A DNA stretch of 63,956 bases, filler included. It is 5 parts of 5 records of this genome, joined end to end, with 100 filler letters (N's around TTAATTAATTAA, not from the genome) between each part and the next. Parts side by side here need not be neighbours in the genome. Positions count along the whole stretch, not along the records: positions 15,073 to 26,521 come from SRR31156797_23323; 4 more parts are not named here. The stretch is one strand, 5' to 3'. Numbering within the stretch: position 1 is the stretch's first letter; every line of letters starts with the position of its first letter. Under the pieces are notes generated by a model. It did not search any database and had not been told where the DNA came from. It saw only the letters and a program-made list of their open reading frames with translations. A program made the translations under genes and the position numbers. This document shows positions 7,194 through 58,732 of the stretch, in pieces.

Positions 7194-7925
7194 CTATTTT
7201 TTAAGTTTTCTTTCTGAAAACTCTGAATCCTTAATATTGATATCAATCTCTATAGTATTTTCAAAAGTTTCAATTTTGGTTATTTTATTATTAACTTCAT
7301 CAAGCATCTCAAGGTCAGTTTCATACCATCTATTGCCAAATTTTTTATATTGATTAATAGTGAGTGTTTTATACTTGATTTCATTTTTATCATAATACTC
7401 CATTGTTTCAATTAGAAAATTATCTTTTGAAACAATAGTATAGATATATTTATATTTTTTTTCCTTATCTCTGGGGTAGAGTTTCACAGTATAGTTTTTA
7501 GAGTTTTCTGTTATTATTTCACTGGTAAAATCTTTTTTATAGTTCATCTCCATATCATCGTATGAAAAACTAGAACCCATCATACTTCCTTTTTTTGCAC
7601 TTTTAGAAAGAAGTCTAACTCTGTTGCTTCTTTTGTTGTAGTACCAGATACTTCCTTCTTTTGAAAGAATTGCTGTTCCTTTTAATCTGGCAGGATAATA
7701 ATATCTGGACAATTGATAATCCTCGTCGCCAACTTTTTTGGAATAACCTTCAAACTCCATAGTTGACGTAACTTTTCCTTTGTTGATAATAGTCATTTTT
7801 GATTTTGAATAAACAGATTTGAAATTAGAGTTTTCTTCTAATTTATCTAATATCCATTGACCATCCTCTGCAAAAGACGTGATGAATAAAGTGATAAAAC
7901 TAAATAGTATACATAGTTTTTTCAT
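7194..7925 (-). CDS. Outer-membrane lipoprotein-sorting (LolA-like, TP0789-type) protein
   Basis: Signal peptide; PARLKGTAIL, WYY...RVR, SMMGSSFSYDD and FSERKL motifs. Confidence 0.75.
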   Translation of the reverse strand: MKKLCILFSFITLFITSFAEDGQWILDKLEENSNFKSVYSKSKMTIINKGKVTSTMEFEGYSKKVGDEDYQLSRYYYPARLKGTAILSKEGSIWYYNKRSNRVRLLSKSAKKGSMMGSSFSYDDMEMNYKKDFTSEIITENSKNYTVKLYPRDKEKKYKYIYTIVSKDNFLIETMEYYDKNEIKYKTLTINQYKKFGNRWYETDLEMLDEVNNKITKIETFENTIEIDINIKDSEFSERKLKK

Positions 7926-13587: not shown

Positions 13588-14778
13588 ATGTTCTGGAAAG
13601 GAAAGTCTATGAAATATGATTTGGATAAGATAGTAGAAAGAAAAGGAACCAATTCGGTAAAATGGGAATTTATAAAGGGAGGAAAAGCAAATCATTTGCT
13701 TCCACTATGGGTTGCAGATATGGATTTTGAATGTGCCGAACCAATTAGAAGAGCACTTCATGACAGAGTTGATAAAGAGATATTTGGTTATACGATAGCA
13801 ATGGACGGTTATTATGACTCAGTAGTTAACTGGTTTGCTAGGAGATTTGAATGGAAAATAAATAAAGAGGATATTATAATTGCTCCGGGAGTTGTACCTG
13901 CTTTAGGATTTTTAATTAGATCATTTACAAGAGAAGGAGACGGAGTTATCATTCAGAAACCTGTTTATTATCCTTTCTCTAATATGATAGAGAATAATGA
14001 CAGAAAAATAGTGAATAATGCTCTTATATATGAAGATGGAAAATACTCGATAGATTTTGATGATCTAGAGAAAAAAGCAAAAAAATATAAGAATAAGATG
14101 TTAATTCTGTGTAGTCCGCATAATCCGGTTGGAAGAGTTTGGACAGAAGGAGAGCTAACTAAGATTGCTCAAATTTGCCTGAAGCATGATGTAATACTTG
14201 TATCTGATGAAGTTCACTGCGATCTTATTAGAGACGATATAGATTTCATACCAATGGCGAAACTGGTTGATAGTGAAAGAATAATCTCATGTACAGCTCC
14301 AAGTAAAACATTTAATTTAGCTGGTCTGAAAACAGCAAATATAATAGCAAAAAAAGGAATTGTACAGAATAAACTTAGAAAAGAGATATTTGATATTACA
14401 GGATTATTTGGAATAAACAGTTTAAGTATAAGTGCAATAGAAGCAGCGTATAATGAAGGTGAAGAGTGGTTAGAACAGGTTAATGAATATATAGATGCTA
14501 ATTTGAAATTCACAGCAGAATTTGTGAAAGAGAATTTTCCTAAAGCGAAGCTTATTCCGGCAGAAGGAACTTATTTTGCATGGATTGATTTTAAGGAATA
14601 TGGACTTAGCCATAATCAATTGGAAAAATTAATGACAGAAAAAGCAGAAGTTGCATTGAATGAAGGATATATCTTCGGAGAAGAAGGAAAAGGTTTTGAA
14701 AGAATTAATGTTGCATGTCCGAGAAGTATTCTGGAAGACTGTTTGAATAGAATGAAAGAAGCAATTTCAAGTCTATAA
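13588..14778 (+). CDS. patB: MalY/PatB-family PLP-dependent C-S lyase
   Basis: SVKW, PLWVADMDF, LCSPHNPVGRVW, SDEVH, APSKTFNLAG, RINVACPR. Confidence 0.9.
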   Translation: MFWKGKSMKYDLDKIVERKGTNSVKWEFIKGGKANHLLPLWVADMDFECAEPIRRALHDRVDKEIFGYTIAMDGYYDSVVNWFARRFEWKINKEDIIIAPGVVPALGFLIRSFTREGDGVIIQKPVYYPFSNMIENNDRKIVNNALIYEDGKYSIDFDDLEKKAKKYKNKMLILCSPHNPVGRVWTEGELTKIAQICLKHDVILVSDEVHCDLIRDDIDFIPMAKLVDSERIISCTAPSKTFNLAGLKTANIIAKKGIVQNKLRKEIFDITGLFGINSLSISAIEAAYNEGEEWLEQVNEYIDANLKFTAEFVKENFPKAKLIPAEGTYFAWIDFKEYGLSHNQLEKLMTEKAEVALNEGYIFGEEGKGFERINVACPRSILEDCLNRMKEAISSL

Positions 14779-14804
14779 TATTTGAAAAATAGAAAGGGGA
14801 AAAT

Positions 14805-14972
14805 ATGATCTTTAGGCACATACCTTTGTATAGATTTCTAATGTTATGTGAAGAGGAAGAAAAATCAGGAAAAACAATACTTGATTGTGGTGCAGGTGGA
14901 AACATGCCGCCACTTAGTTTATTCGCAGATCACGGGTTCCAAACAACTGGAATTGAGTTTGATGAAAATCAA
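14805..14972 (+). CDS. Class I SAM-dependent methyltransferase, partial at contig end
   Basis: ILDCGAGG motif I; runs into the N linker. Confidence 0.7.
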
Positions 14973-15072
14973 NNNNNNNNNNNNNNNNNNNNNNNNNNNN
15001 NNNNNNNNNNNNNNNNTTAATTAATTAANNNNNNNNNNNNNNNNNNNNNNNNNNNNNNNNNNNNNNNNNNNN
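14973..15072. other. Artificial contig linker
   Basis: 44 N + TTAATTAATTAA + 44 N; base composition changes across it. Confidence 0.98.
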
Positions 15073-18000
15073 TTCGGGTGTCCATACCTTTGGATTTCGG
15101 CCGTGATAAGGTCCTGAAGCTCAAGACGTATACTCTCAGCGTCCATGTTGTCCGGGTCCTGGGCAAGATTCGCATACCTGCCGATCATTCCGCCGACCAG
15201 GGACCCGCGCCATATCTGTTCCCGGTATTTTTCTTGGGGCTGAGACATAGCAAGTTCGACGCTGTTCTTTTGCAGGGGAGAAAGCAGGTCCGGGAAAGAT
15301 TTGTAGATACTGAATGCCTGTTTTGCCGTGAGTTTCAGGCTGGTTTTTTGGGATTCCAGGATGGCTTTCAACTCTTGAATGGTTCCGGCGCCGTACTTTG
15401 CAGATTCCAAAACCATGCTTTCATCTTTTTCAATGGCAATCTTGATCCAATCGCCATTCTGGAATTCGTACTCGCTTCCATTGATAATCCGCCGGTCACC
15501 ATTGGCATGGTGCTTTTCGGCCGGCTCCGCAATTTCCAGGGCTTCCCAATCAATACGGCTGTCAAATCGTATCGCCAATTTTTTCTTTAAGGATTCATTG
15601 TCAATATCGCCGTCAACCGTTTCACGGGACCACCGATCACCGGGGACCTTGGGCGTGTATTTCCCCATGATGAACTTCCGGCCTTCTCCCTGCCAGTACA
15701 TGCCGGATATGAATTCATCCCAAAGAATGTTTGATTCCTGAAGGGTTTCGAGTACCAGGGCCTCTATCTTTTCCAAAAGGCTTTCAGGGTGTTTTTTGAA
15801 AATCACGATATCGGTAACTGTGTCGGTCCCCTGGGCACTGAAAGTCTTTGACGGCAGTTTATGGGCCCCAAGGAATTCTGCTTTTTTGCTGACAGCTGTT
15901 CGCCACTGTTCCCACTTTCCGCCCTTGGCGCCCACAATGTTGATAGGCGCTACAAAACAAGCCAGCTTCCCGGGTTTGATCTTATCCAGGGCTCGAAGGA
16001 TGAAGTATCTTTCAATTCTCTTCTCAGCCTTGTAAGCGGGATCCTCATGAGCCGCGGCCCCACGGGCGCTACCGAAAGGAACATTCGCGATTACACCGTC
16101 AAAGGTGTTATCAGGGGTGTTTACGGCCACCAGCTCGAATGACTTATTTTCAATCAGGTCATCCGGGTTCAGAAGCTGGGCCACCTGTGAGCCCACGGGA
16201 TCCAGATCACAACCGGTAATGACTGACCCTTCCGGTTTGGTTCCAGAGAAGACGCCTGGGCCTGAGCATGGGTCCAAGATATTACCATTTGCAAAGCCAT
16301 TGGCTTTCATGGCATCCCAGAGACCTTCCGCCACATGGGTAGGCGTGTAATATTCATACTGGGAGTTGTCGGTCAGGCCACCCTTCCCTGAGTATTGTCT
16401 CAGAATGTTGATTTCTTCAGGCGTAAGCTTGGAAGCGTCCTTGCCGACCCGGGCAAGGATCTCTTTGGATTTCGCGTTCAGCTTTTCACGGGTCTTGATG
16501 CCACGGGATTTCAGTCCGTAATCGCTGTTTTCAAATTTGCGATCGTTTTTTTTTGGACTACCAAAAAGGCGGGAGAAGATGGCCTCAATATCCTTGATGG
16601 TTGCGGCCGCCATGATGTCCTCGACCCATGGGTTCGCGGCGGATCTTTCAAAGATCATTCCTTCTTTTTCGGTTCCGCCGGCCACTTCATCTTGGGTTCG
16701 TCGGACTCCGCCTGATTCGCTTCCTCCACCGCTTTGATCATTATTTCTTGCAGCTTCGAAAAGCCCTTTTTGTTTTCCGCCATAATAATCGTCCTCTACT
16801 TTCTGAATTGCTCTTGAAATGACTTCGCTCGGTGTGGGGTCCGGTTCTTTCCCGAAAAGCGTTTCCTGATTTTCGTTTGCAAGGTGGGTCTTCAGGAGCT
16901 TCGCCGCTTCCTTGAAAACACGCCCCATTCGCTTGCCGCTTCGGACATTCTGGTCAATGAATTTCGAAAAGGTCGCCGTCCCCTCCGGGATCTCTTCAAA
17001 CATGCCGATCTGTGCAAGCATGCCATCTATGGAAATCTTTTGATCCCTGCTTTTCTGGATCAGCTTCATTGCACCAATGGCGTGTGAAGGGATGTTGATG
17101 CCCCCAAGGTCCATATCAAACCCTTTGCACTTGGAGAATTCACCGGCTGAAAAGGTGAGGGCGTTCAAGACATTTCTTAATTTCGGGTCAGCTTCTTCAG
17201 CCATCAAAGCCAAAAGCGAATCGTCATCATAGGCTTTCTGGAAAATGGCCGCCTGTATCCGGTCAATCAACTGCTTTGTGGCTCGGCCGTCCTCAGTCAA
17301 ATACCCGGTTGCTTCATTGACACCCATTTTTGAAATGAATTTCTTGACAAAATCAGCATTGGAGGAAGCATTGATATTCCCGTCTTCTGACGGCTCGAAA
17401 ATGGCAAGGTCTGCATCGGTCAGATTTTCCGCATCCATCCGGGCCAGTTCCGCCGGGCTCATCTTGGCAATTTCATCTTTGTTCGCGTCTTCCGCGAATT
17501 TGGCGCGGTCTTCCACTTCGGAAGTCCTGATTCTCACCAGGATCGGACGCTCCATGGCCTCGATATCGGCCGGCTGAATGCCAAACTGAGAAGCGTTATC
17601 AATCAACCATTCCCGGTATTCCTGCCCCTTTGGGCCATTGGCGTAGGCTTTCCTCAAAGCGATGGTCCGGCCGTTCCCGGATTCCACGGCCAGGTCCGGG
17701 CCAACAATGGGCGCCCCGGAAGAGGCCAGGGGAGATTGACCCATACGTTCCGGATTCAGCTTGTTCGCCATTTCTTCAACCTGCATCCTCATGGCGTCAC
17801 GGTCCCGTTGCCTGGGCTGTATTTCCTGAGGATAGGTCTCGTCTTTGGCTAAATCGTCGGAATGGGATGTCTTGATATTTCCAATTTCCAGAACGGCATA
17901 CTGCGTATCCACTGATGTATTATCATGTAGAAAAGCCTTAGCGTTTTTCCCTTTTATCTTGACATTTTGGACTGTTTCGCCTATGTCTGAGTCATCAGGA

Positions 18001-20855
18001 GGTGAAACCATGTCACTTGAATTTTTGGAAAAAGAAGATCGACCTTTCGTGTTTGACAAAGAGTCTTGGGAATTGTTCCGAATGGACGGAAGCGATAGAT
18101 CAAACTGGGTCAAAATTGAAGATTCTGACAGTTGCGTAAGGATCAGGTCCCAATCGTCCATCATTTCGGAGTTGGAAGCCAAGTCTTTGGCCGATGCTTT
18201 GGCCCGTGAACGTGCCGAATCGGCGGCGGCCTGATTGTAGGCCCTTCTACTTAGATCCTCTAACTCTTCCAGGGCGCCCCTTGCAACAAAGCGGGCGTCT
18301 CCTTCTTCATCCCTTGCAATCGGCGCCAGTTGGCGGGTAACGTCATAGATTTTATGGCCCAAACCGTTGTTCTTGGCGTCAATCATGGTCTGGGTGTTCA
18401 ACTGCAATTCCGCAACATGCCCGTTGGACATGGCCACGTTCATGAAGATGTCGCGGTAGCCACTGTGCATCGGCTTTTCATAGCGGTTTTTGATCCTGAA
18501 AACTGAATCATCATCCTTGAGCATCTGAAATGCGGCCGCCACTTCTTCAACGGTATCGAAAACCAGCGTTCCGGCAAGAATGTCTTTCAGGTTCCCATAC
18601 TCCCCGCCTTCATCATTCTTGGCCTTCTCAATAGCCCTTTCCCGGCTTTTGAGCCCCGGCCGCACCATGGCCTTCCCACCGGTCTTTTTTGCCCATTTCG
18701 CCATAAAGTCAGAAAACAGGGGTTGCGCTTCGGTTGCCTGCTCAAACAGGTCATCAATGGTTTTGACACCGGGCTGCTTCAGGGTCCTCTTGATTTCAAC
18801 CGTGGCTTTTTCTTCACCCAGGGCCTGAAGCGCATGAAAGGTCGTGTTTCCGTCCAGGATCTTGTATTTCCCGTTACCCATGGCAAGGACACTGATAGGC
18901 TTTCTCTTTTCCCCGGCCCCTTCTTTGGCGGCCGACATGTATTCATGGGCATGCTCCAGGCGGTTCGGATCCGGGGTTTCCCTTTTCACCAACTTATCCA
19001 GGGGCATAACGACGCTGGTATCAGTTGATTTCAGGTAGGGGGATATCTGGACATCCAGTTTTCCACCGAAAAGTATCTTGAAAACATTTGAAATGTCGTC
19101 CACGTCTTCCGCACGTTCAATTGCATGTCCCCAGTTGGAATGCGCGATTTCAGAAGGGTCTACTGCCATTTCGTATATGGGGGTGGCTGTAGATCCCATG
19201 ATTTGTCCTTTTGGAGCGGTTCCGCCATTTATCCTTGCGCTCTCTACCAAGTTTGCACCATTCCTCTTGACATCCATCACCCATTTGATTAATTTGTCTT
19301 TAGAAAGGTCGTTGAGACTCCGCCCCTGCATTGCACGCGGGTAAGCCTGAGTCTTAGTGGCCTTTTCCATTTCTGATTCGTCGGTTATGTGTGCATCCCT
19401 GAAAAGGTTAAGATGTCCTGTCCCTTCCTTATCTACTCGTACGGTTAACCTTGCATATATAGTTTCCCCATCGATGTTAGCCTTTACGCCATAGTGTAGC
19501 CACTTTTCGGTTTTCCTTGGATCATCTTCATTACGATGTTCTTCAAACAAGGGGACAGCGTCTTTCGTAAGGACCTTTAATGATGGTACAATTTTCACAA
19601 CCCTGATGTCAGCGCTGTGAGATTGTATTTCTCTATACCCTGGCATAATGAACTTTATGACGCGACGATCATATATATTCACCTCTTCCTTCAGATCTCG
19701 ATATAGTTCCATCGCCTTCTTTCGAATATGCTTTTTCTCAGAAAGCCCTTCAAATGGTGAAGTATTAATTTTGCAGGCATATGAATTAATTAGAAACTCA
19801 AGGCGTTCTTGAGGCGCCAAACTAAACAACCCATCAAGAACCACTCGGACTTCTTCAACCGACGTGGCGCTCCGAATAGCCTGCATCCATTCCGGATCAC
19901 CTGCCGATTCCAGGACCGGGGTTTCAATCGGTTTGGTGGTATCACCCTTCAGCCACGTTTTGAATTCATCAACAGAAAGGGAGACCATGCTGCCGAGGCC
20001 TTTCCACCCCTTCTCGTAGTTGGAAAGATAGGCGCCTGTGGCTTCTTTTTCGGAAGAAAAGCCCATCATAATTTTGTGTTCGTCAAAGGCCCCTTTTTCG
20101 TTCGTCTGGTTGACGATATAGACCGTGCTTGCGCCTTCCGGATCAGGTCCAAAAAAAACATCAAGGTGATCTTTGTCTTTGCCTACGGTGCCTTTGATGT
20201 AGCCATAATGATGATTGATTTTAGAGGTCCATTTCTTGCCGCTTCGGTCTACTCCTGATCTTTCGGACCCAGCGGGGTTCTCAATGGCGATATCCAGGCC
20301 CAGAACGCGCACATGGCCCTTCCGGTAGTTCCCGGATTCCTTTTGCGCTTCCGTAGGTTTTGGGAGATCGTTCTTCGGGGATTCAGCCGCCTTATGGGCT
20401 TCCTTATCAATCTTCACTGATTCCAAAACCGGATTTTCTTTCACAGCTTTCAACCCTTCCCATCCTGCCAGATACCAAGTTTTCCGGCCTCTCTCCCACG
20501 CAAGGGATACGACAAATCCTTGATATGTGATGTCTACGCGCCTGTTTCCAGGAGGCCCATACCGCTTTTTGATTTTGCCCCGGGAAAGGGCTTCAACCGC
20601 CTGCAAAATCGTCTCGTTACTTCCAGGCGCCTTCGAAAGAATGTTCGCAATCCCGTATCCGTCTTCATAGCCAAGAGTCTTATCGCCTTCTCTTCCCCAA
20701 AGGAATGATATCCACCCCAGATCCGGCCTAAACGCCGCATCTGGAAAATTCATCTTCCGATCAAGGACCAATTGCATGTTGACTTGTGCGGGAGTCACCC
20801 TTTCGGCAGGGTTAAGACGCTGCAAATATGCGGCACCTTCAAAGATTGCTGACAT
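15073..20855 (-). CDS. Giant polyvalent virion protein: BECR-like nuclease, inorganic pyrophosphatase, LPD3-like, ParB-like, RelA/SpoT, DdrB-like ParB, DarB-like N6-adenine methyltransferase (3' truncated)
   Basis: InPase: GNYRKGHV..IENPAGSERSG..YGYIKGT.GKDKDHLDVF. ParB-like: RKPISV..KILDGNT. RelA/SpoT: GLKSRERAIEK..LKDILAG..KNRY..SGYRDIFMNV..AELQ. DdrB-like: QPRQRDR..GAPIVG..VESGNGR. DarB-like: YSGKGGL..EYYTP..LDPCSGPG..NVPF. The BECR-like and LPD3-like calls are weaker. Confidence 0.85.
17959..18005 (+). promoter_or_regulatory. Antisense promoter and SD inside the polyprotein gene
   Basis: TTGACA (17959-17964), N17, TATGTC (weak -10); SD AGGAGGTGA at 17997-18005. Confidence 0.55.
18010..18234 (+). 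CDS. Nested antisense 74-aa protein, candidate antitoxin/immunity protein for the RelA/SpoT domain
   Basis: ATG 7 nt after AGGAGG; MSLEFLEKEDRPFVFDKESWELFRMDGSDRSNWVKIED...IISELEAKSLADALARERAESAAA. The overlapping polyprotein segment is Ser-rich and looks like a shadow frame. Confidence 0.7.
   Translation: MSLEFLEKEDRPFVFDKESWELFRMDGSDRSNWVKIEDSDSCVRIRSQSSIISELEAKSLADALARERAESAAA
19267..19366 (+). ncRNA. Antisense promoter plus ~65-nt structured RNA inside the polyprotein gene
   Basis: TTGACA (19267-19272), N17, TAATTT (19290-19295). A 17-bp stem (19304-19320 with 19349-19365) has four G-U pairs that form only on the + strand and ends in a U run. Confidence 0.55.
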
Positions 20856-20872
20856 CGGAAAGCCTCCAAGGG

Positions 20873-20905
20873 TCCCCCCTTTAACCTTCGCGGGGTCAAG
20901 GGGGC
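20873..20905 (-). other. GC-rich hairpin before the polyprotein RBS
   Basis: Minus strand CCCCCTTGACC...GGTTAAAGGGGG, no U-tract, followed by GGAGG and ATG. Confidence 0.45.
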
Positions 20906-20925
20906 AGTTGGGTAAGTCAGGGGTA

Positions 20926-21870
20926 TTAAGCAGCCGCTTTCATGTCAGCCGCTTTGATAATCGCTTCAACGGTTGTTCCGCCGTCTAGTGTGTAAATTTC
21001 AAGGACTTCGATGTTTGCAGATCCGAAGGAGGGCGCAGCACCCGCGCCCCAAAGATCCACTCCGGTCCATGTAATGGTGTGGTTGTCGGTATTATCCATA
21101 CGAAGGGTCAATACATCCGCAATCCCGGTCGCTTTCCAGTTCGAAAAAACAACGGTGCAATCGGCGCCAACGGTGATGGTTTGAAAATTTCCACCATCCA
21201 GGTCGATAATCACAAGGCCCGCCCCTTTGCCGGCCTTCACCGCCGTCGCTGCGCCATCCACGGCGATACCGGTTACGGTTGCAAACCATCCGGTACTCGT
21301 CACGGTGTTTCCATTGGGTCCCGTGATTTCTTCCGTCGAGGCATCCCCGTTTTCGTCGGTTCCCGTAACGGTCACGGTCACGCCGGAAAGGTCGTTGGCG
21401 GAGGTGAGCGTCACCTTACGGGGGACATCGAATTCAACCGCGCCATCGGAAACATCCGCCCCGTCAAGGGTAAGGGCGCCGGCTTCAGTGGGGCTTTGCA
21501 CTTCCGCAATGGCGTCATCATCCGCCGCATTGGGGTTCGTGCCAATGGCGCCCACTGCAACACCCACGCGGGAAGCATCGTTCGTCAATCGTCCATTGGC
21601 ATCCAAAGGCGCAAGCCCACCCGCCGCGCCCCTTTCGGAATAAGGTATTTTTGCAAGCGGGTCCGGGGTTTCCCCATCATCTGCCGGTGCCCCGGCGGTT
21701 GCGGTCAAAAGGTTTGATTCGGCATTGATTTTGGCTACGGCAGCCGGCGCCAGCGCGGAACCAATGGAAAAGGTTGTGGTTGCATTTGCAGCGCAAAGGA
21801 CATTGAACCCGGGACCAATGATATGTTCCTCGTTGCCACCATTCACGACTGATACGATTGTTTTCAACAT
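20926..21870 (-). CDS. Ala/Thr/Gly-rich putative virion structural (fibre or decoration) protein
   Basis: GAAGGLAPLDANG fibre-like motif, beta-rich composition, SD AAGGAG, phage late-gene context. Confidence 0.55.
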   Translation of the reverse strand: MLKTIVSVVNGGNEEHIIGPGFNVLCAANATTTFSIGSALAPAAVAKINAESNLLTATAGAPADDGETPDPLAKIPYSERGAAGGLAPLDANGRLTNDASRVGVAVGAIGTNPNAADDDAIAEVQSPTEAGALTLDGADVSDGAVEFDVPRKVTLTSANDLSGVTVTVTGTDENGDASTEEITGPNGNTVTSTGWFATVTGIAVDGAATAVKAGKGAGLVIIDLDGGNFQTITVGADCTVVFSNWKATGIADVLTLRMDNTDNHTITWTGVDLWGAGAAPSFGSANIEVLEIYTLDGGTTVEAIIKAADMKAAA

Positions 21871-21914
21871 GGTTTTTCTCCTTTAATTTGCTTCATCAAG
21901 TTCAATATCCAGCA

Positions 21915-22259
21915 TCACGCGGCCTTCTTTAGTTTGTCCTGGTTCGCCTCAATATAGTTGATGGTCGGGTTCTTCACCGGTTCCAGGTCGCCAATTTCCC
22001 GTACAATTTCATCCAGGATCACCAGGAATTCCCTGTGATTCTTGTTATTGAATTTGCCCGCAATCAGGTCTTTAAGCTTCTGGTTTTCACCGGCGCCCTG
22101 TCCCTGCGAAATCTTGAAGGACAGCTTTTCAAAGGCATCCTTCAATTCCTTTTGTGCGGCCCTTTTCTCCTTGAAAGAAAGGGATCCGCCTTTCAGGTCT
22201 TCCATTTTGGCCGCTACCACTTTTTGAAGGGCTCTTTTTTCCTTGAAAGATATGGCCAT
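21915..22259 (-). CDS. ddrA: DdrA-like protein
   Basis: 114 aa directly after darA; duplicated N-terminal helix (SFKEKRA x2) and C-terminal L.DLIAGKF..F..L..DL..VK..T..YI.AN pattern recalling P1 DdrA. Confidence 0.6.
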   Translation of the reverse strand: MAISFKEKRALQKVVAAKMEDLKGGSLSFKEKRAAQKELKDAFEKLSFKISQGQGAGENQKLKDLIAGKFNNKNHREFLVILDEIVREIGDLEPVKNPTINYIEANQDKLKKAA

Positions 22260-24097
22260 TATGCAGCCTCCTTTAACTGTTCCAGAACAACGGTGTAATG
22301 GTCTGCAGCCTCGTTCAAGAGATCGTCGTATTCATCCATCAACCCGGCTTCCTCAAGTTCATCGGCCGCCAGGTCAAGGGCACGGTCAAGGGCGTCCGGG
22401 TCATCGTCCAGGTCACCGTTTATGATGTTGTTGAGGGTTTGGACTGCGGGCGGGATTTCCACAGGAGTTTCTTCCTCGAGTTCCGGAATGGGTTCGGGGT
22501 CGGGCTCAATAACCGGTTCCTGCCCTTCATCAAAAACGATCACCTTCGGTTTGCTAAGACTTTTATCGAACTTCCAGGCCTTCCCTTTTTCTTTCATACG
22601 TCTGGTAAACTCCACGGTTTCATCGTCGATGTTCCCCTTTTTGGTTTCCAGGGACCTTTTCAGGGAAGCGTTTGACCGGCTTTTGAATTTCTTTTGGACA
22701 ATCTCTTCAATGGTCTCGCGCTCGGGGGTGGGTTCCGGTTCTGGTTCGATGTCCGGTTCGGGGGAAGTATCCAACTCCATGGATTTCTCATTGTAAGTAA
22801 GCAGGCTCCCACCGTTAATCGGTCGCGCCTTATATCGTCGGTCTCCCAACTCAGCATCATAGTTACCTACGGTTTCCACTTTAAGCCTGTCTGATCCGAC
22901 CTTGACGATATCGCCCGGTTTGAATTTCGGTTCCGGTTCCGGCCTGTTCGCATGACCACTGGTGTAGAGGTCTTCCACATATTTATCCCAATCCTCTTTT
23001 GATATTATGCCATCGTTGTACGCTTCCCATGTTCCGCCCGCTTCTTCCGCCCGACCAAGGCGAAGCCCAGGGACTTTCTCTTGCCCGAGATTCTGCAACC
23101 GCTTAACTTCGGCGGCCGCTTCGTCGGCTTTCTGGAGTCTCTGCCGGTCTCTTACGGTTGCCCTTAATACCTTAATGCCATCGCCAACAAGGGTCTGAAT
23201 CGTTTCATCCGTCATACCCAGATCCGAGGCCTCTTTCTTCAAGGCTTCAATGGCCGCGTTTTCTTCATCCTTCCGCGCCTGTTCCGCCTTCTCAGCCTCT
23301 GCCGCCTTCCACCGGTCAATTTGATCCTGAAGGTCGGCATTTCGGGTGATGGCCGCGTCAAGCTGTTCCTGCGTGTTATCAATCTGCATCTGCATATCGT
23401 CGGCATCTTCCGTCTGTGCGGAAAACTCCATCATGAGATTATCCCTATCAGCACCGACCATGGCCAAGTCCGCCTTTGCGGTTCGCAAGGCCGCTTTTTG
23501 CTTACCGACCTGCTTTGACCGCTTCTGGAACTTTTCGGAATTCTTGGCCGCAATCTGGGTGATACGCTTCGAAATCTGTTCAAGGGATACTTCACGGCCG
23601 GATTCGGGAGAAACGGCCTGGGTGATATCGCGTTTATTGAGGAGCCATCGGAAAGCAATGATTTCATCATCCGGCATAATTTTCGTGTTATCCCCATCGG
23701 GGGAATGGAAAACGATACTGATCACCTGCCCATCGGAAAGCGGGATTTGCACCGTAACGGAAGCAAAAAGCCCGGACTTTCGAACTTTTCCAATTTGCGC
23801 CGGATCCGCCTTGATACCATCGAAATTCTTGTTAAGGGCCCGGACCAATGCCGCCATACGCCTTGTGGTCTGCGAAAACTTACGCACCGTGACGGCCTCC
23901 AGCAGCATGTCAACAATGTCACCGGGGTTGAATTCTGTATCAATGTCTTCCAGGGTCGCGGTTTCCATCAAAAGGGCTTCCTGTTCGCCATCTGCGGAAA
24001 GGCCGTAATAAACATCTTCCAGCTCGGTATCGGTAAAGCCTTTCGCAAATAGATCCAGACCGCCTATCACCTTTATGCCTTCAGTCATCGGATTCAT
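22259..24097 (-). CDS. darA: Defense-against-restriction protein DarA
   Basis: RMAALVRALN, LSDGQVISIVFHSP, IIAFRWLLNKRDIT..V.P.SGR, KNSEKFQK; coiled coil; C-terminal LEEAG..DEYDDLLNEAADH matches the P1 DarA C-terminus as I recall it. Confidence 0.85.
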   Translation of the reverse strand: MNPMTEGIKVIGGLDLFAKGFTDTELEDVYYGLSADGEQEALLMETATLEDIDTEFNPGDIVDMLLEAVTVRKFSQTTRRMAALVRALNKNFDGIKADPAQIGKVRKSGLFASVTVQIPLSDGQVISIVFHSPDGDNTKIMPDDEIIAFRWLLNKRDITQAVSPESGREVSLEQISKRITQIAAKNSEKFQKRSKQVGKQKAALRTAKADLAMVGADRDNLMMEFSAQTEDADDMQMQIDNTQEQLDAAITRNADLQDQIDRWKAAEAEKAEQARKDEENAAIEALKKEASDLGMTDETIQTLVGDGIKVLRATVRDRQRLQKADEAAAEVKRLQNLGQEKVPGLRLGRAEEAGGTWEAYNDGIISKEDWDKYVEDLYTSGHANRPEPEPKFKPGDIVKVGSDRLKVETVGNYDAELGDRRYKARPINGGSLLTYNEKSMELDTSPEPDIEPEPEPTPERETIEEIVQKKFKSRSNASLKRSLETKKGNIDDETVEFTRRMKEKGKAWKFDKSLSKPKVIVFDEGQEPVIEPDPEPIPELEEETPVEIPPAVQTLNNIINGDLDDDPDALDRALDLAADELEEAGLMDEYDDLLNEAADHYTVVLEQLKEAA

Positions 24098-24687
24098 TAT
24101 GCAGCCTCCTTTAAGTCTTCAAGTTCGGCCATCAAGGTCTCAGTTTTCTGATTCTCAGTTTCCAATTTGGCCCGCAATTCAGCCAGGGTCTTGCCCTTTG
24201 TCTCAATGGCCGTGGTCAATTCCTGCACTTCCGCCTCAAGACCTTCATTTTCGGCCTTCATAAGGGACATGGACTGATTAACCGCCTCCAATTGTTTCTT
24301 TGCGCTGGTCGTGGCCGGCTTCAGGGGTTTAGGCGTTGGGAGATTTTTGTTTTCAAGGCGTTTCTTTTTCTGTTTCAAGAACTTGGGTTCATTCTTTTTT
24401 ACAAAGAGGATCACTTCTTTAACGGCTTTGTCCAGGTCATCCACATGCTTGATTGGTATGGCCTTATTGTTCAACTTTACCTGGAAGATGGAACCATTGG
24501 CCTTGGCCTTCAACAGCAACTTCTGCCCGCTTTCAAAAAAGAATGTGGCGGACTTTGTTTGATATCCTGATTCTCTTTTCGGCCGGTTCGTCGCCTCAAC
24601 CGTATTTATGGGAAGGCTCTGTTTAAAGGCATCGATCACCTTTTTTAACCCCTTCTCATTAAACTGCTTAAAGTCTATCGAAATCAT
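24097..24687 (-). CDS. hdf: Hdf-like protein (DarA_N domain plus coiled coil)
   Basis: IDFKQFNEKGLKKVI, GSIFQVKLNNKAIP; lies immediately upstream of darA as in P1. Confidence 0.75.
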   Translation of the reverse strand: MISIDFKQFNEKGLKKVIDAFKQSLPINTVEATNRPKRESGYQTKSATFFFESGQKLLLKAKANGSIFQVKLNNKAIPIKHVDDLDKAVKEVILFVKKNEPKFLKQKKKRLENKNLPTPKPLKPATTSAKKQLEAVNQSMSLMKAENEGLEAEVQELTTAIETKGKTLAELRAKLETENQKTETLMAELEDLKEAA

Positions 24688-25205
24688 AATCCTTTCTCCT
24701 TTTCGGGAAGGGTCCCCTCGAAAACTATTTCAAAACCTTTCCAATGGCGGAAGATATCCGCCAATTCATCCGGGGTTACGCCTTGCCAATATTCCAGGAT
24801 CTCGGCAAAATACAGGAATTCCGCTACAAGCTCTGAGCATACCGCCATGCCGAATCCCCACCTTGACAATGGCGGAAAAAGATGGAAAAGTATCCTATGC
24901 AGAGGGTAGGGGTCACCTATACGCTTTTGGCTTTTACCAAAGGCATTTTGAAAAAGGTGGGTATCCATATTGGCATGCCGTGCAATTAACACCGGCTTCC
25001 CGGCGTAATGATAAAGATCCCCCTCGGATACCCCTTTCCCAACAGATTCGAAAATATCACCCTGATTATTCAGGATGATTCCGGCATGTGAATATCTGGC
25101 TCTACCATCTGGGGCCCAGAACCGTTGGATTGCATTGATCATCTTTGAAACAATGCCCTTTGAATCCGACAAAAACATATCACCTGATTTTAAATCCATC
25201 ATCAC
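24684..25205 (-). CDS. Permuted papain-like (YiiX/YebB, NlpC/P60) amidase-family protein
   Basis: LKSGDMFL..YSHAGI (His) precedes CSELVA (Cys); TPDEL near the C-terminus. Confidence 0.75.
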   Translation of the reverse strand: MMMDLKSGDMFLSDSKGIVSKMINAIQRFWAPDGRARYSHAGIILNNQGDIFESVGKGVSEGDLYHYAGKPVLIARHANMDTHLFQNAFGKSQKRIGDPYPLHRILFHLFPPLSRWGFGMAVCSELVAEFLYFAEILEYWQGVTPDELADIFRHWKGFEIVFEGTLPEKEKGL

Positions 25206-25756
25206 AGCACCCTATAAACTTTGAATTCGTGATCGCCAATGAGTTTGATAACGTACTCGGAGCCACCGATTTCAAGCGTTTCAAAATCGGATTCAAGGAC
25301 CTGCAAAATGCCGGGGGGGCCTGAAGTTGTGTAATCGAATGTCGCAACCCCATCGGTGAACGCAACTTTCACGATGTCATGTACGGCGCCGTCACTGTTC
25401 CGGATGGTGATCCTCCGATTCAAGCCCGTTATGGCCGTAATGATATCGGAAGAAGGGGACTCGCCAACCCTGAATGTGACAGACACTCTCAAAGACTCCA
25501 CACCATTGTTTTGAATTCCGATAGGGTCCATGCCATCACCATCGGCAAGAGCCACATGGGCATATATATTGGCCGGCGTGGATACCTCCTCTGCCGAAAA
25601 CTCTTCCGTTTCGGAGTCATATGCCCACCCGGTTTGCGGTTGCGGGCTGACCGAGGAAACATCAATAATCGTAAGCCCGGCATTCCTTAAAGCCGTGACT
25701 CTATTCGGCTCAACTTCAATCGCGTTTGCTTTGCCGTTAATTATTTGCATATACAT
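25202..25756 (-). CDS. Phage tail-fibre-associated hypothetical protein
   Basis: PQPQTGWAYD...FSA motif seen in fibre assembly proteins; follows the Gly-rich fibre gene. Confidence 0.5.
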   Translation of the reverse strand: MYMQIINGKANAIEVEPNRVTALRNAGLTIIDVSSVSPQPQTGWAYDSETEEFSAEEVSTPANIYAHVALADGDGMDPIGIQNNGVESLRVSVTFRVGESPSSDIITAITGLNRRITIRNSDGAVHDIVKVAFTDGVATFDYTTSGPPGILQVLESDFETLEIGGSEYVIKLIGDHEFKVYRVL

Positions 25757-25762
25757 ATCTTT

Positions 25763-26392
25763 TTACCCCCAATACACTACGCAATAACCGGACCCGCCAG
25801 CCGCGCCATTTCCACCACCACCACCACCGCCTGTATTAGCAGCTGCCGCGGTATTGAGATCTACGCCAGGTCCATATGAACCGCCTCCGGACTCCCCTCC
25901 AACGCCATCTATGGCATTGTTGTTGGTGCAGGCCCCGCCGCCGTAATCGTAGCAGGCACCACTGCCACCCCCGAAACCTATACCGTCAACCCCTGGAAGG
26001 CCTGATCCATCGCCCGGACCTACTCCACCTCCCGGGCCTCCACCGTTCCCGCCGCCACCTTTATTCGTGCTAATCCCATACTTGCCATGGAACCCGCCCT
26101 GGGCATTAATGCTGCCGAAAGAAGAGGCACCGCCATTGCTCCCTGCAGCACCGCCCGCGCCAATGGTTACCGTAATAGACTCTGCCGGCGTCACGGCCAC
26201 CCGGTCCAAAAACTTACATTCACCGCCACCACCGCCGCCTCCATATCCGCCCGTGCCGCCGCCGCCGCCGCCGCCGACCAACAATAATGAGACCCATTCC
26301 ACACCGGCAGGAACGGTGAACGTACCGGAGCTTGTGAAAGCTTGAGAATTTATGGCCCCACCGGCCGCAAAAAACTGACTTAAGAATGACAT
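25763..26392 (-). CDS. Glycine-rich phage tail-fibre protein
   Basis: FTSSGTFTVPAGV..LVGGGGGGG..VTIGAGG..GGSGYCVVYW. Confidence 0.8.
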   Translation of the reverse strand: MSFLSQFFAAGGAINSQAFTSSGTFTVPAGVEWVSLLLVGGGGGGGTGGYGGGGGGGECKFLDRVAVTPAESITVTIGAGGAAGSNGGASSFGSINAQGGFHGKYGISTNKGGGGNGGGPGGGVGPGDGSGLPGVDGIGFGGGSGACYDYGGGACTNNNAIDGVGGESGGGSYGPGVDLNTAAAANTGGGGGGGNGAAGGSGYCVVYWG

Positions 26393-26405
26393 TTATGGTT
26401 CCCCC

Positions 26406-26521
26406 TTATGCTATCCGCCAACCGTCTGAGTTACGGACCAACTTGAATGCTGCGTTGCTGATATCACAGGCCATATCTTCAGAAAGCCCCATGATTTTGA
26501 GGCCGTTCCGTCCAATGGTAA
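26406..26521 (-). CDS. C-terminal fragment of a tail-fibre protein (not in the ORF track)
   Basis: Minus-strand translation TIGRNGLKIMGLSEDMACDISNAAFKLVRNSDGWRIA*, a typical fibre C-terminal motif. Confidence 0.65.
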
Positions 26522-26621
26522 NNNNNNNNNNNNNNNNNNNNNNNNNNNNNNNNNNNNNNNNNNNNTTAATTAATTAANNNNNNNNNNNNNNNNNNNNNNN
26601 NNNNNNNNNNNNNNNNNNNNN
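26522..26621. other. Artificial contig linker
   Basis: N44-TTAATTAATTAA-N44. Confidence 0.98.
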
Positions 26622-51917: not shown

Positions 51918-52017
51918 NNNNNNNNNNNNNNNNNNNNNNNNNNNNNNNNNNNNNNNNNNNNTTAATTAATTAANNNNNNNNNNNNNNNNNNNNNNNNNNN
52001 NNNNNNNNNNNNNNNNN
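51918..52017. other. Artificial contig linker
   Basis: N44-TTAATTAATTAA-N44. Confidence 0.98.
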
Positions 52018-58632: not shown

Positions 58633-58732
58633 NNNNNNNNNNNNNNNNNNNNNNNNNNNNNNNNNNNNNNNNNNNNTTAATTAATTAANNNNNNNNNNNN
58701 NNNNNNNNNNNNNNNNNNNNNNNNNNNNNNNN
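58633..58732. other. Artificial contig linker
   Basis: N44-TTAATTAATTAA-N44. Confidence 0.98.

Follow-up and report, generated by a model that had tools for sequence, protein, structure and literature searches.

The OOP RNA of phage lambda is about 77 nucleotides (nt) long and is made from a constitutive promoter of its own. It lies antisense to the 3' portion of a coding region, stops at the hairpin of an intrinsic terminator and acts by pairing followed by cleavage of the duplex. RNA-OUT of IS10 (~70 nt) is a long imperfect hairpin whose promoter lies within the coding region of the mobile element. Among type I systems, antisense RNAs are found with enzyme toxins or with an overlap at the 3' end (SymR/SymE, RatA/TxpA); in ToxI, tandem repeats form an array upstream of the endoRNase toxin, on the strand that also carries the toxin. 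Here, we report a predicted small RNA gene, complete with promoter and hairpin, that runs antisense to a polyvalent (DarB-like) protein gene; homologs of the locus strongly support this prediction. The putative RNA gene (19267-19376, +) was found in a stretch of DNA of 63,956 nucleotides, filler included (the window, along which all its positions are counted), and lies within the coding region of LPD3, one of the domains of the polyvalent protein.

By sequence, the predicted LPD3 RNA resembles OOP in being a short phage RNA with its own promoter, antisense to a coding region and closed by a terminator hairpin. In one phage group, OOP covers the end of cII plus an intergenic stretch, whereas the LPD3 unit lies, promoter included, entirely inside a domain-coding module and appears to move with that domain between unrelated polyvalent genes and host phyla. 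With RNA-OUT it shares the ~70-nt antisense single hairpin and the promoter inside a mobile-element gene, but RNA-OUT covers the translation start of the transposase; the LPD3 RNA lies ~1.5 kb inside a ~6-kb gene and consequently could not block initiation. Like SymR and RatA it would be a cis antisense RNA coupled to one protein module of a mobile element, and, in the manner of RatA/TxpA, it would reach over the 3' end of those LPD3 genes that stand alone. LPD3 itself is neither a small membrane peptide nor the small hydrophobic toxin typical of type I systems, but a soluble domain of ~165 amino acids (aa). Linkage to a protein of phage-bacterium conflict is common to ToxI and the LPD3 RNA, although the repeat array and the same-strand upstream position are not present here, and nothing points to an endoRNase toxin. 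The hallmarks of OOP- and RNA-OUT-type RNAs, an antisense promoter of their own and a short transcription unit with hairpin and U tract, can be recognized at this locus, and pairs are kept through compensatory change as in structured RNAs. Since this layout is like that of cis-antisense RNAs of phages and transposons, silencing is the preferred function: the reading that we favour, with about even confidence, is a ~70-nt cis-antisense RNA gene which moves with LPD3 and silences the polyvalent mRNA. It appears to be an RNA of a known kind whose arrangement is new, in that it is embedded in a protein domain and shuffled together with it.

In the window, the -35 box TTGACA (19267-19272, +) is antisense to the last base of D528, V529 (GTC) and the first two bases of K530 (AAG), and is separated by a spacer of 17 nt from the -10 box TAATTT (19290-19295, +), which is antisense to K521 (AAA) and L522 (TTA). 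Downstream, AAAGGTCGTTGAGACTC (19304-19320) pairs with GAGTCTTAGTGGCCTTT (19349-19365) at 17 of 17 positions, four of them G-T pairs, and the extra pair G19303-T19366 extends the stem to 18 pairs without interruption, a length that no other such stem of the window reaches on either strand. The complete hairpin (19303-19366, +) comprises this outer stem (five G-U pairs), a 2-pair step and an apical stem-loop (19325-19341, +), which carries CCUGCAUUG (19325-19333) and encodes a disordered protein loop. It runs into the terminator-like, U-rich tail TTTTCCATTTCTGAT (19362-19376, +), whose first Us pair at the base of the stem. The promoter, the 17-pair stem with its four G-U pairs, the inner hairpin and the U-rich tail agree with an earlier reading of the letters (the sequence-only reading), whose statement that no open reading frame (ORF) is present needs the qualification that a mechanical + strand ORF (19078-19344) overlaps the unit. 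With a start 7-8 nt past the -10 box and an end within the U-rich tail, a small RNA of ~70-75 nt (19302-19376, +) is predicted from promoter geometry and hairpin. Because the predicted start (A19302 or G19303) falls at the first base of the stem, the RNA would essentially consist of hairpin and U tail, and it would be fully complementary to codons 497-518 of the polyvalent mRNA.

RNAfold gave -31.4 kcal/mol for the + strand (z -3.69), a value equalled by 0 of 200 shuffles, and -21.6 kcal/mol for the gene strand (z -1.40; equalled by 18 of 200). Synonymous shuffling of the gene produced a stem of at least 18 pairs in 4 of 150 cases and reached the local energy in 2 of 1000. Considered alone, the hairpin of the window is borderline.

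The matter was decided by comparison with homologs. LPD3 homologs with about 25-37% protein identity to the window were collected from metagenome loci (L051, L027), genome contigs (L081-L084), viral contigs (L085, L103), sampled genomes (L092, L096) and GenBank phages (L100, L101). L103, a close relative of L085, was excluded from the independent count. The crAss-like phage L099, in which only the following domain aligned, and L091, which is cut by its contig end, were dropped. The antisense site reads TTGACA-17-TATACT in L085 and L103, TTGACA-17-TACACT in L084, TTGAAA-17-TAGTCT in L081, TTGATT-17-TAACCT in L083, TTGACT-17-TATATT in L051, TTGACA-17-TAATAT in L027, TTGACG-17-TACACT in L092, TTGACG-17-TACCGT in L100 and TTGACA-16-TACCAT in L101. 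TTGACG-N17-TACCGT is the form carried by the LPD3 module of the cultivable Achromobacter phage CF418P1. The core TTG...-N16/17-TAnnnT was present at the aligned antisense site in 10 of the 11 independent homologs, where 0.29 were expected from codons sampled out of each ORF's own synonymous pool (Fisher p 1.7e-11; 1.2e-10 without the window). TAnnnT is kept in all 12 sequences of this first set by NTA codons after A-initial codons: the Leu, Ile or Val codon is always NTA and the codon before it always begins with A, though the residue may be K, S, R, N, I or T. Furthermore, Val is always encoded by GTC, followed by AAG or AAT. The promoter boxes are thus a product of synonymous codon choice.

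The hairpin recurs together with the promoter at the aligned site, as the sequence-only reading had proposed to look for. In 14 homolog elements it spans 55-92 nt, contains 20-32 pairs and has a folding energy between -25 and -45 kcal/mol. A gap of 2-24 nt separates it from the -10 box, and beyond the stem comes a T-rich tail with 5-9 T among the first 12 nt. The 15th element of this comparison is the window, whose own row is unreliable there, so that its features were taken from the direct sequence and RNAfold. Stem sequences diverge between lineages. The 95 nt after the -10 box are more structured on the antisense strand than in synonymous shuffles (Fisher p 8.3e-6; 1.4e-4 without the window). 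L085 and L103 share 69% protein identity. Of 80 nt, 12 differ between them, including 8 in paired positions, and all six changed pairs remain paired; two are double compensatory changes and four are G-U/A-U changes, in which pairing is kept on the antisense strand only. In an alignment of five sequences 79% of the cells were paired, compared with 67% in shuffles (0 of 500 reached the observed value) and 43-57% in slid controls, a contrast that is inflated since these sequences also served to derive the structure; in 9 of the 21 pairs both partners change.

The apical part of the hairpin shows a constraint at the RNA level, independent of the protein. The motif CCCCCUGAUUUGG(G/U)AUCAGG is identical at 19 of 20 positions in L085 and L084, although these 20 nt are read in different frames, as PDPKSGGE in L085 and as HLIPNQGV in L084. 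Likewise, CCUGCAUUG is common to the window, L081 and L083 with a differing frame in L081, and CAATGCAGG falls into one frame in the window and into another in L081. Such frame-independent conservation seems hard to explain by selection on the protein. It would also be unneeded for a purely cis-acting antisense RNA, which counts against the silencing reading and favours a rather unlikely alternative, namely that the RNA acts in trans or via a protein. The apical loop would then be bound by LPD3 (as partner, antidote or cargo) or, as a decoy, by a host factor or defence protein, and the complementarity to the mRNA would be incidental. That the apical sequence is kept in different frames across lineages of ~30% protein identity fits this idea, as do the strict travelling of the RNA with LPD3 through domain shuffling and the location of the unit in anti-defence polyvalent genes. 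On the other hand, the apical motif is kept in some lineages only, the LPD3 fold gave no RNA-binding or nuclease match, and a duplex scan against the 8 translation starts of the contig yielded -11 to -29 kcal/mol, which is within the background (mean -24.9, standard deviation 5.9).

The position of the hairpin close behind the promoter also has to be considered with regard to transcription itself. An immediate succession of start and terminator is typical of regulated leader terminators as well, and at lambda PR'-tR' a constitutive promoter is combined with a regulated terminator that is read through under some condition. In analogy, the unit could act on transcription or on DNA, as a convergent interfering promoter, as a promoter with a regulated terminator or as the source of a short primer transcript. 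The promoter boxes, being the most strongly conserved part, and the gap of only 2-24 nt would agree with such a role, which we nevertheless regard as unlikely: covarying stems and a conserved apical motif would be superfluous for a mere roadblock. Moreover, downstream on the + strand of this contig read-through would express nothing obvious, since the genes there that reach 100 aa are all on the minus strand.

A second form of the promoter was found in the LPD3 subfamily of L075, L079 and L101. Here the antisense strand carries TTTG-N20-TATCTTTG, and the codon register is a different one. This motif occurs 12 times in 627 kb on both strands, with 5 occurrences within these three loci. We take TTTG/TAnnTTTG to be the Bacteroidota promoter consensus; the variant would be a promoter adapted to the host. 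Scanning viral contigs with this subfamily gave 73 further loci with 44 distinct sequences of 23-78% identity, which served as a replication set. A composite was defined as one of the two promoter types, a hairpin at least as stable as -18 kcal/mol and, within 112 nt, a T-rich tail. Of the 44 sequences, 32 have it on the antisense strand at the end of the domain and none on the sense strand of the same region. Upstream control regions gave 4 of 44 (antisense) and 0 of 44 (sense). Closer relatives carry TTTG/TAnnTTTG, and the distant ones (23-32% identity) TTGACA or TTGACT-17-TAnnnT; in five further sequences the -7 motif is combined with a longer RNA and a distinct terminator hairpin. As background, the composite had 100 hits in 671,397 bases of all earlier loci, both strands, and matched 9 of the 12 LPD3 sites of the first set.

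With 10 of 11 homologs in the first set and 32 of 44 against 0 of 44 in the second, the predicted promoter and hairpin RNA opposite the polyvalent gene, as postulated by the sequence-only reading, are strongly supported. As the arrangement recurs in dozens of distant relatives, the unit looks like a real, so far undescribed RNA and not like a chance hairpin. That no RNA gene exists, and that rare A/T-rich codons instead cause a translational pause at the end of the domain with hairpins formed by chance or as mRNA structure, is highly improbable. NTA, AGA and AGG codons are indeed rare in many bacteria, and the sense strand is somewhat over-structured, too. Pausing leaves unexplained, however, the invariant GTC-AA that produces TTGAC, the fixed 17-nt spacing, the T-rich tails, the switch to TTTG-N20-TAnnTTTG in another codon register in one subfamily, the G-U-only changes and the antisense bias of the replication set. 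Since neither chance nor rare-codon pausing accounts for spacing, promoter switch, tails, G-U changes and strand bias, both were rejected.

The RNA unit encodes residues 497-530 of the polyvalent protein. According to Pfam, LPD3 (PF18798; 35.6 bits, curated cut-off 27) covers residues 373-479, and the sequence-only reading had placed the unit in a linker directly C-terminal to the domain. An exhaustive HMMER search, for which residues 340-620 were the query, found 129 hits; roughly 75 of these (counted from the table) align to query position 185-221, corresponding to residues 524-560. Homology thus extends ~55 residues past the Pfam model and ends near residue 534, and consequently the unit is part of a conserved extension at the C-terminal side of LPD3 and not of a linker. 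From HMMER hits, alignments and AlphaFold2, the extended LPD3 coding region is 19254-19736 (-), residues about 374-534. LPD3 is a soluble alpha+beta domain of ~165 aa, and the protein around it exceeds 1900 aa. In the AlphaFold2 model (predicted local distance difference test, pLDDT, 77), the domain has a helix at 493-501, a C-terminal helix at 517-532 and, between the two, a variable loop of low confidence at 504-515. The 3' arm of the hairpin falls in the first of these helices and the apical RNA loop in the disordered protein loop; the 5' arm and both promoter boxes are located in the C-terminal helix.

The two closest relatives of the polyvalent gene keep the flanks of this region (72-80% identity in P0005, 62-66% in L001), but hold unrelated inserts of ~336 aa and ~605 aa (the latter at 4960-6776 of L001) in place of residues ~345-559. 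LPD3 and the RNA unit therefore form an exchangeable cassette (19179-19821, -; residues about 345-559), as delimited by BLASTP against P0005 and tblastn against L001. Stand-alone LPD3 proteins of ~200 aa were found among the homologs. As a side observation, the motif WFGDW recurs before LPD3 modules and VDENGEP(L)VVYHG begins the next (ART-type) module (L079 5666-5700, L075 5021-5050 and several aligned homolog proteins); both look like standard module junctions of polyvalent proteins. In the viral contig L105 (12060-12260) the RNA unit is nearly identical to that of L103, the upstream LPD3 core differs and the T-run is lost. This junction at the 3' end of the hairpin suggests that recombination may have occurred at the RNA unit.

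For the silencing of the polyvalent mRNA, which we favour and which corresponds to one of the two options of the sequence-only reading (regulation of the polyprotein mRNA), the following course of events can be proposed. A host-type promoter, TTGACA-N17-TAATTT, would start + strand transcription at about 19302, and the hairpin 19303-19366 together with the U-rich tail would end the transcript after ~70 nt. The RNA would pair with the polyvalent mRNA and lower its expression by duplex-triggered cleavage, to which the convergent promoter may add transcriptional interference. The effector gene would be kept silent as long as sense transcription is weak, in the prophage state or early infection, and late in infection the RNA would be out-titrated.

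A number of further observations weigh against this reading. At the promoter, the -10 box of the window matches the consensus at only 3 of 6 positions, which is why a promoter scan does not report the TTGACA-N17-TAATTT site, and L082 combines TAATCT with a poor -35 box. A stem of at least 18 pairs arose in 4 of 40 block-wise dinucleotide shuffles of the window and is thus not significant window-wide. By the criteria of the replication set, 7 of its 44 sequences are without the unit, two of them being partial matches. The sense strand of the 95-nt region is also over-structured (Fisher p 2.0e-3), as any inverted repeat would bring about, and in L084 both strands fold equally well. A covariance model built from five elements recovered only those five in 470,738 bases and missed the other homolog elements. 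RNAalifold, applied to a MAFFT alignment of 11 subfamily elements, gave no long stem because stem registers shift; covariation, a further check proposed by the sequence-only reading, hence stands on the L085/L103 pairs and the five-sequence alignment but not on this larger one. The failure of both programs indicates that the RNA family is structurally loose. The covariance model had two further, weak hits, L046 (E-value 0.065) and L061 (E-value 2.8). The one in L046 (3670-3748, -) is antisense to a domain of LPD3-like appearance (...RLYVHEVFVAENIKKGD...) and shows a hairpin, a T-rich tail and a poor promoter match.

As its other option, the sequence-only reading had proposed a type III-like antitoxin that neutralises a putative ribonuclease (RNase) domain. 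RNA and LPD3 are indeed inherited together, and with the stand-alone proteins of ~200 aa, LPD3 and its RNA could form a two-part module. We nevertheless consider an RNA antitoxin acting on an LPD3 RNase activity very unlikely. Tandem Repeats Finder detected no tandem-repeat RNA array in the contig, and the RNA is single-copy and antisense instead of lying upstream on the same strand. For the RNase domain, Foldseek against the PDB gave no match below an E-value of 0.05 and only a faint NTF2/cystatin-like similarity, and Pfam and PADLOC gave nothing beyond LPD3, a missing match being no proof. In the main text of Iyer et al. 2017 (PMC5512222), LPD3 is one of the domains LPD1 to LPD40 of elusive function and outside the seven that are potentially enzymatic.

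A broader concept is that LPD3 is a two-product module, in which each copy has an obligate partner RNA on the opposite strand, recognised by its apical loop and serving as antidote, cofactor or an injected or early-made decoy, with a promoter adapted to the host (sigma-70 or Bacteroidota type). We put this forward only tentatively and lean towards doubt. If it holds, protein domains and embedded RNA genes would shuffle as one, and polyvalent genes would be mosaics of the two. Polyvalent proteins are large, shuffled effectors delivered by phages and conjugative elements into new hosts, and the LPD3 unit points, apart from this broader concept, to a conserved RNA gene within one of their commonest uncharacterised domains. 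Such an RNA would offer a regulatory or antidote mechanism and thereby a first functional handle on LPD3. It would also constrain the protein, whose variable disordered loop corresponds to the apical hairpin and whose C-terminal helix corresponds to the promoter. As an example of dual coding, the locus illustrates how synonymous sites and reading-frame shifts can reveal an RNA, a class of gene within ORFs that annotation pipelines and domain models overlook.

With regard to novelty, Rfam 15 had no match at E-values up to 1 in 14000-22000 of the window, and its sole hit over 10 homolog loci was unrelated and below threshold. The main text of Iyer et al. 2017 (PMC5512222) contains none of the terms antisense, small RNA and promoter on a word search, and a literature search combining LPD3, polyvalent proteins or DarB with antisense or small RNA, supplements being outside its scope, found no description. 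Close DNA relatives were not detected by blastn against phages and plasmids, nor was the LPD3 of the window by tblastn against phage and plasmid collections. Single-protein searches for related loci in viral and genome contigs and a homologous-protein search with residues 340-620 found none either, and the locus searches with the alignments A2 and A3 suffered from too high divergence. Retrieval by way of InPase provided 80 metagenome loci, 2 of which were matched by the LPD3 profile at an E-value of 1e-3 or better; the LPD3-like nature of two others retrieved in this way, L075 and L079, was recognised only later. LPD3 was present at an E-value of at most 0.001 in 6 of 401 sampled genomes, and five of the six exceed the Pfam cut-off; of 400 others sampled, one had it, namely the centre genome itself. 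Regarding DNA patterns, CCTGCATTGCN{2,3}GCGG matched at least 118 viral stretches; none of these lies in an LPD3 gene and they were therefore discarded as chance matches. CCCCCTGATTTGGNATCAGG added only one near-relative, L105.

The window consists of five joined contigs with G+C contents of about 30%, 50%, 42%, 60% and 46%, which are separated by spacers of the form N44-TTAATTAATTAA-N44 (14973-15072, 26522-26621, 51918-52017 and 58633-58732). ORFs crossing these spacers are consequently artefacts, including the final 18 codons of a 1944-aa ORF. The contig with the RNA unit covers 15073-26521, and its large ORFs are all on the minus strand. The gene of the polyvalent (DarB-like) protein, assigned from the ORF list, translation and Pfam, occupies 15073-20855 (-), its 3' end being cut by the contig end. 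In addition to LPD3, Pfam identified the domains InPase (residues 169-303), RelA_SpoT (736-836), ddrB-ParB (978-1110) and N6_Mtase (1574-1692). The operon genes upstream of it (20926-26392, -) encode a Gly-rich tail-fibre-like protein, two products without family, an Hdf-like and a DdrA-like protein, a 314-aa protein without family and a 612-aa DarA_N protein; altogether the contig has two DarA_N proteins. With the polyvalent gene, these genes make up a P1 dar-type anti-restriction operon of a phage. The main text of Iyer et al. 2017 (PMC5512222) treats DarB as the archetype of polyvalent proteins.

Two further features of the polyvalent gene were recorded. Residues ~40-100 (20570-20740, -) resemble a part of P0005 with a sub-threshold match to PBECR1, a phage BECR nuclease (25.1 bits, cut-off 27.6). 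Behind the RelA/SpoT domain, an antisense ORF of 129 aa (17845-18234, +), probably the antisense gene mentioned in the sequence-only reading, is also open in L001 (7735-8148) with 50% identity over 122 aa, the sense protein being 62% identical.

Finally, the hits of the composite comprised ~78 on minus-strand and ~22 on plus-strand rows in our tally, window rows included; protein-matched loci were oriented with the matched gene on the plus strand, and the skew may be partly compositional. A second recurrent antisense unit was seen in L068, L071 and L073 at ~7343-7352 (-), within another polyvalent domain (sense peptide DQAMREMAINATMLDT...), and consists of TTGCTT-16-TAT(A/C)TT, a long perfect hairpin and a T-rich tail. 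As the three loci are close relatives, it counts as one observation.

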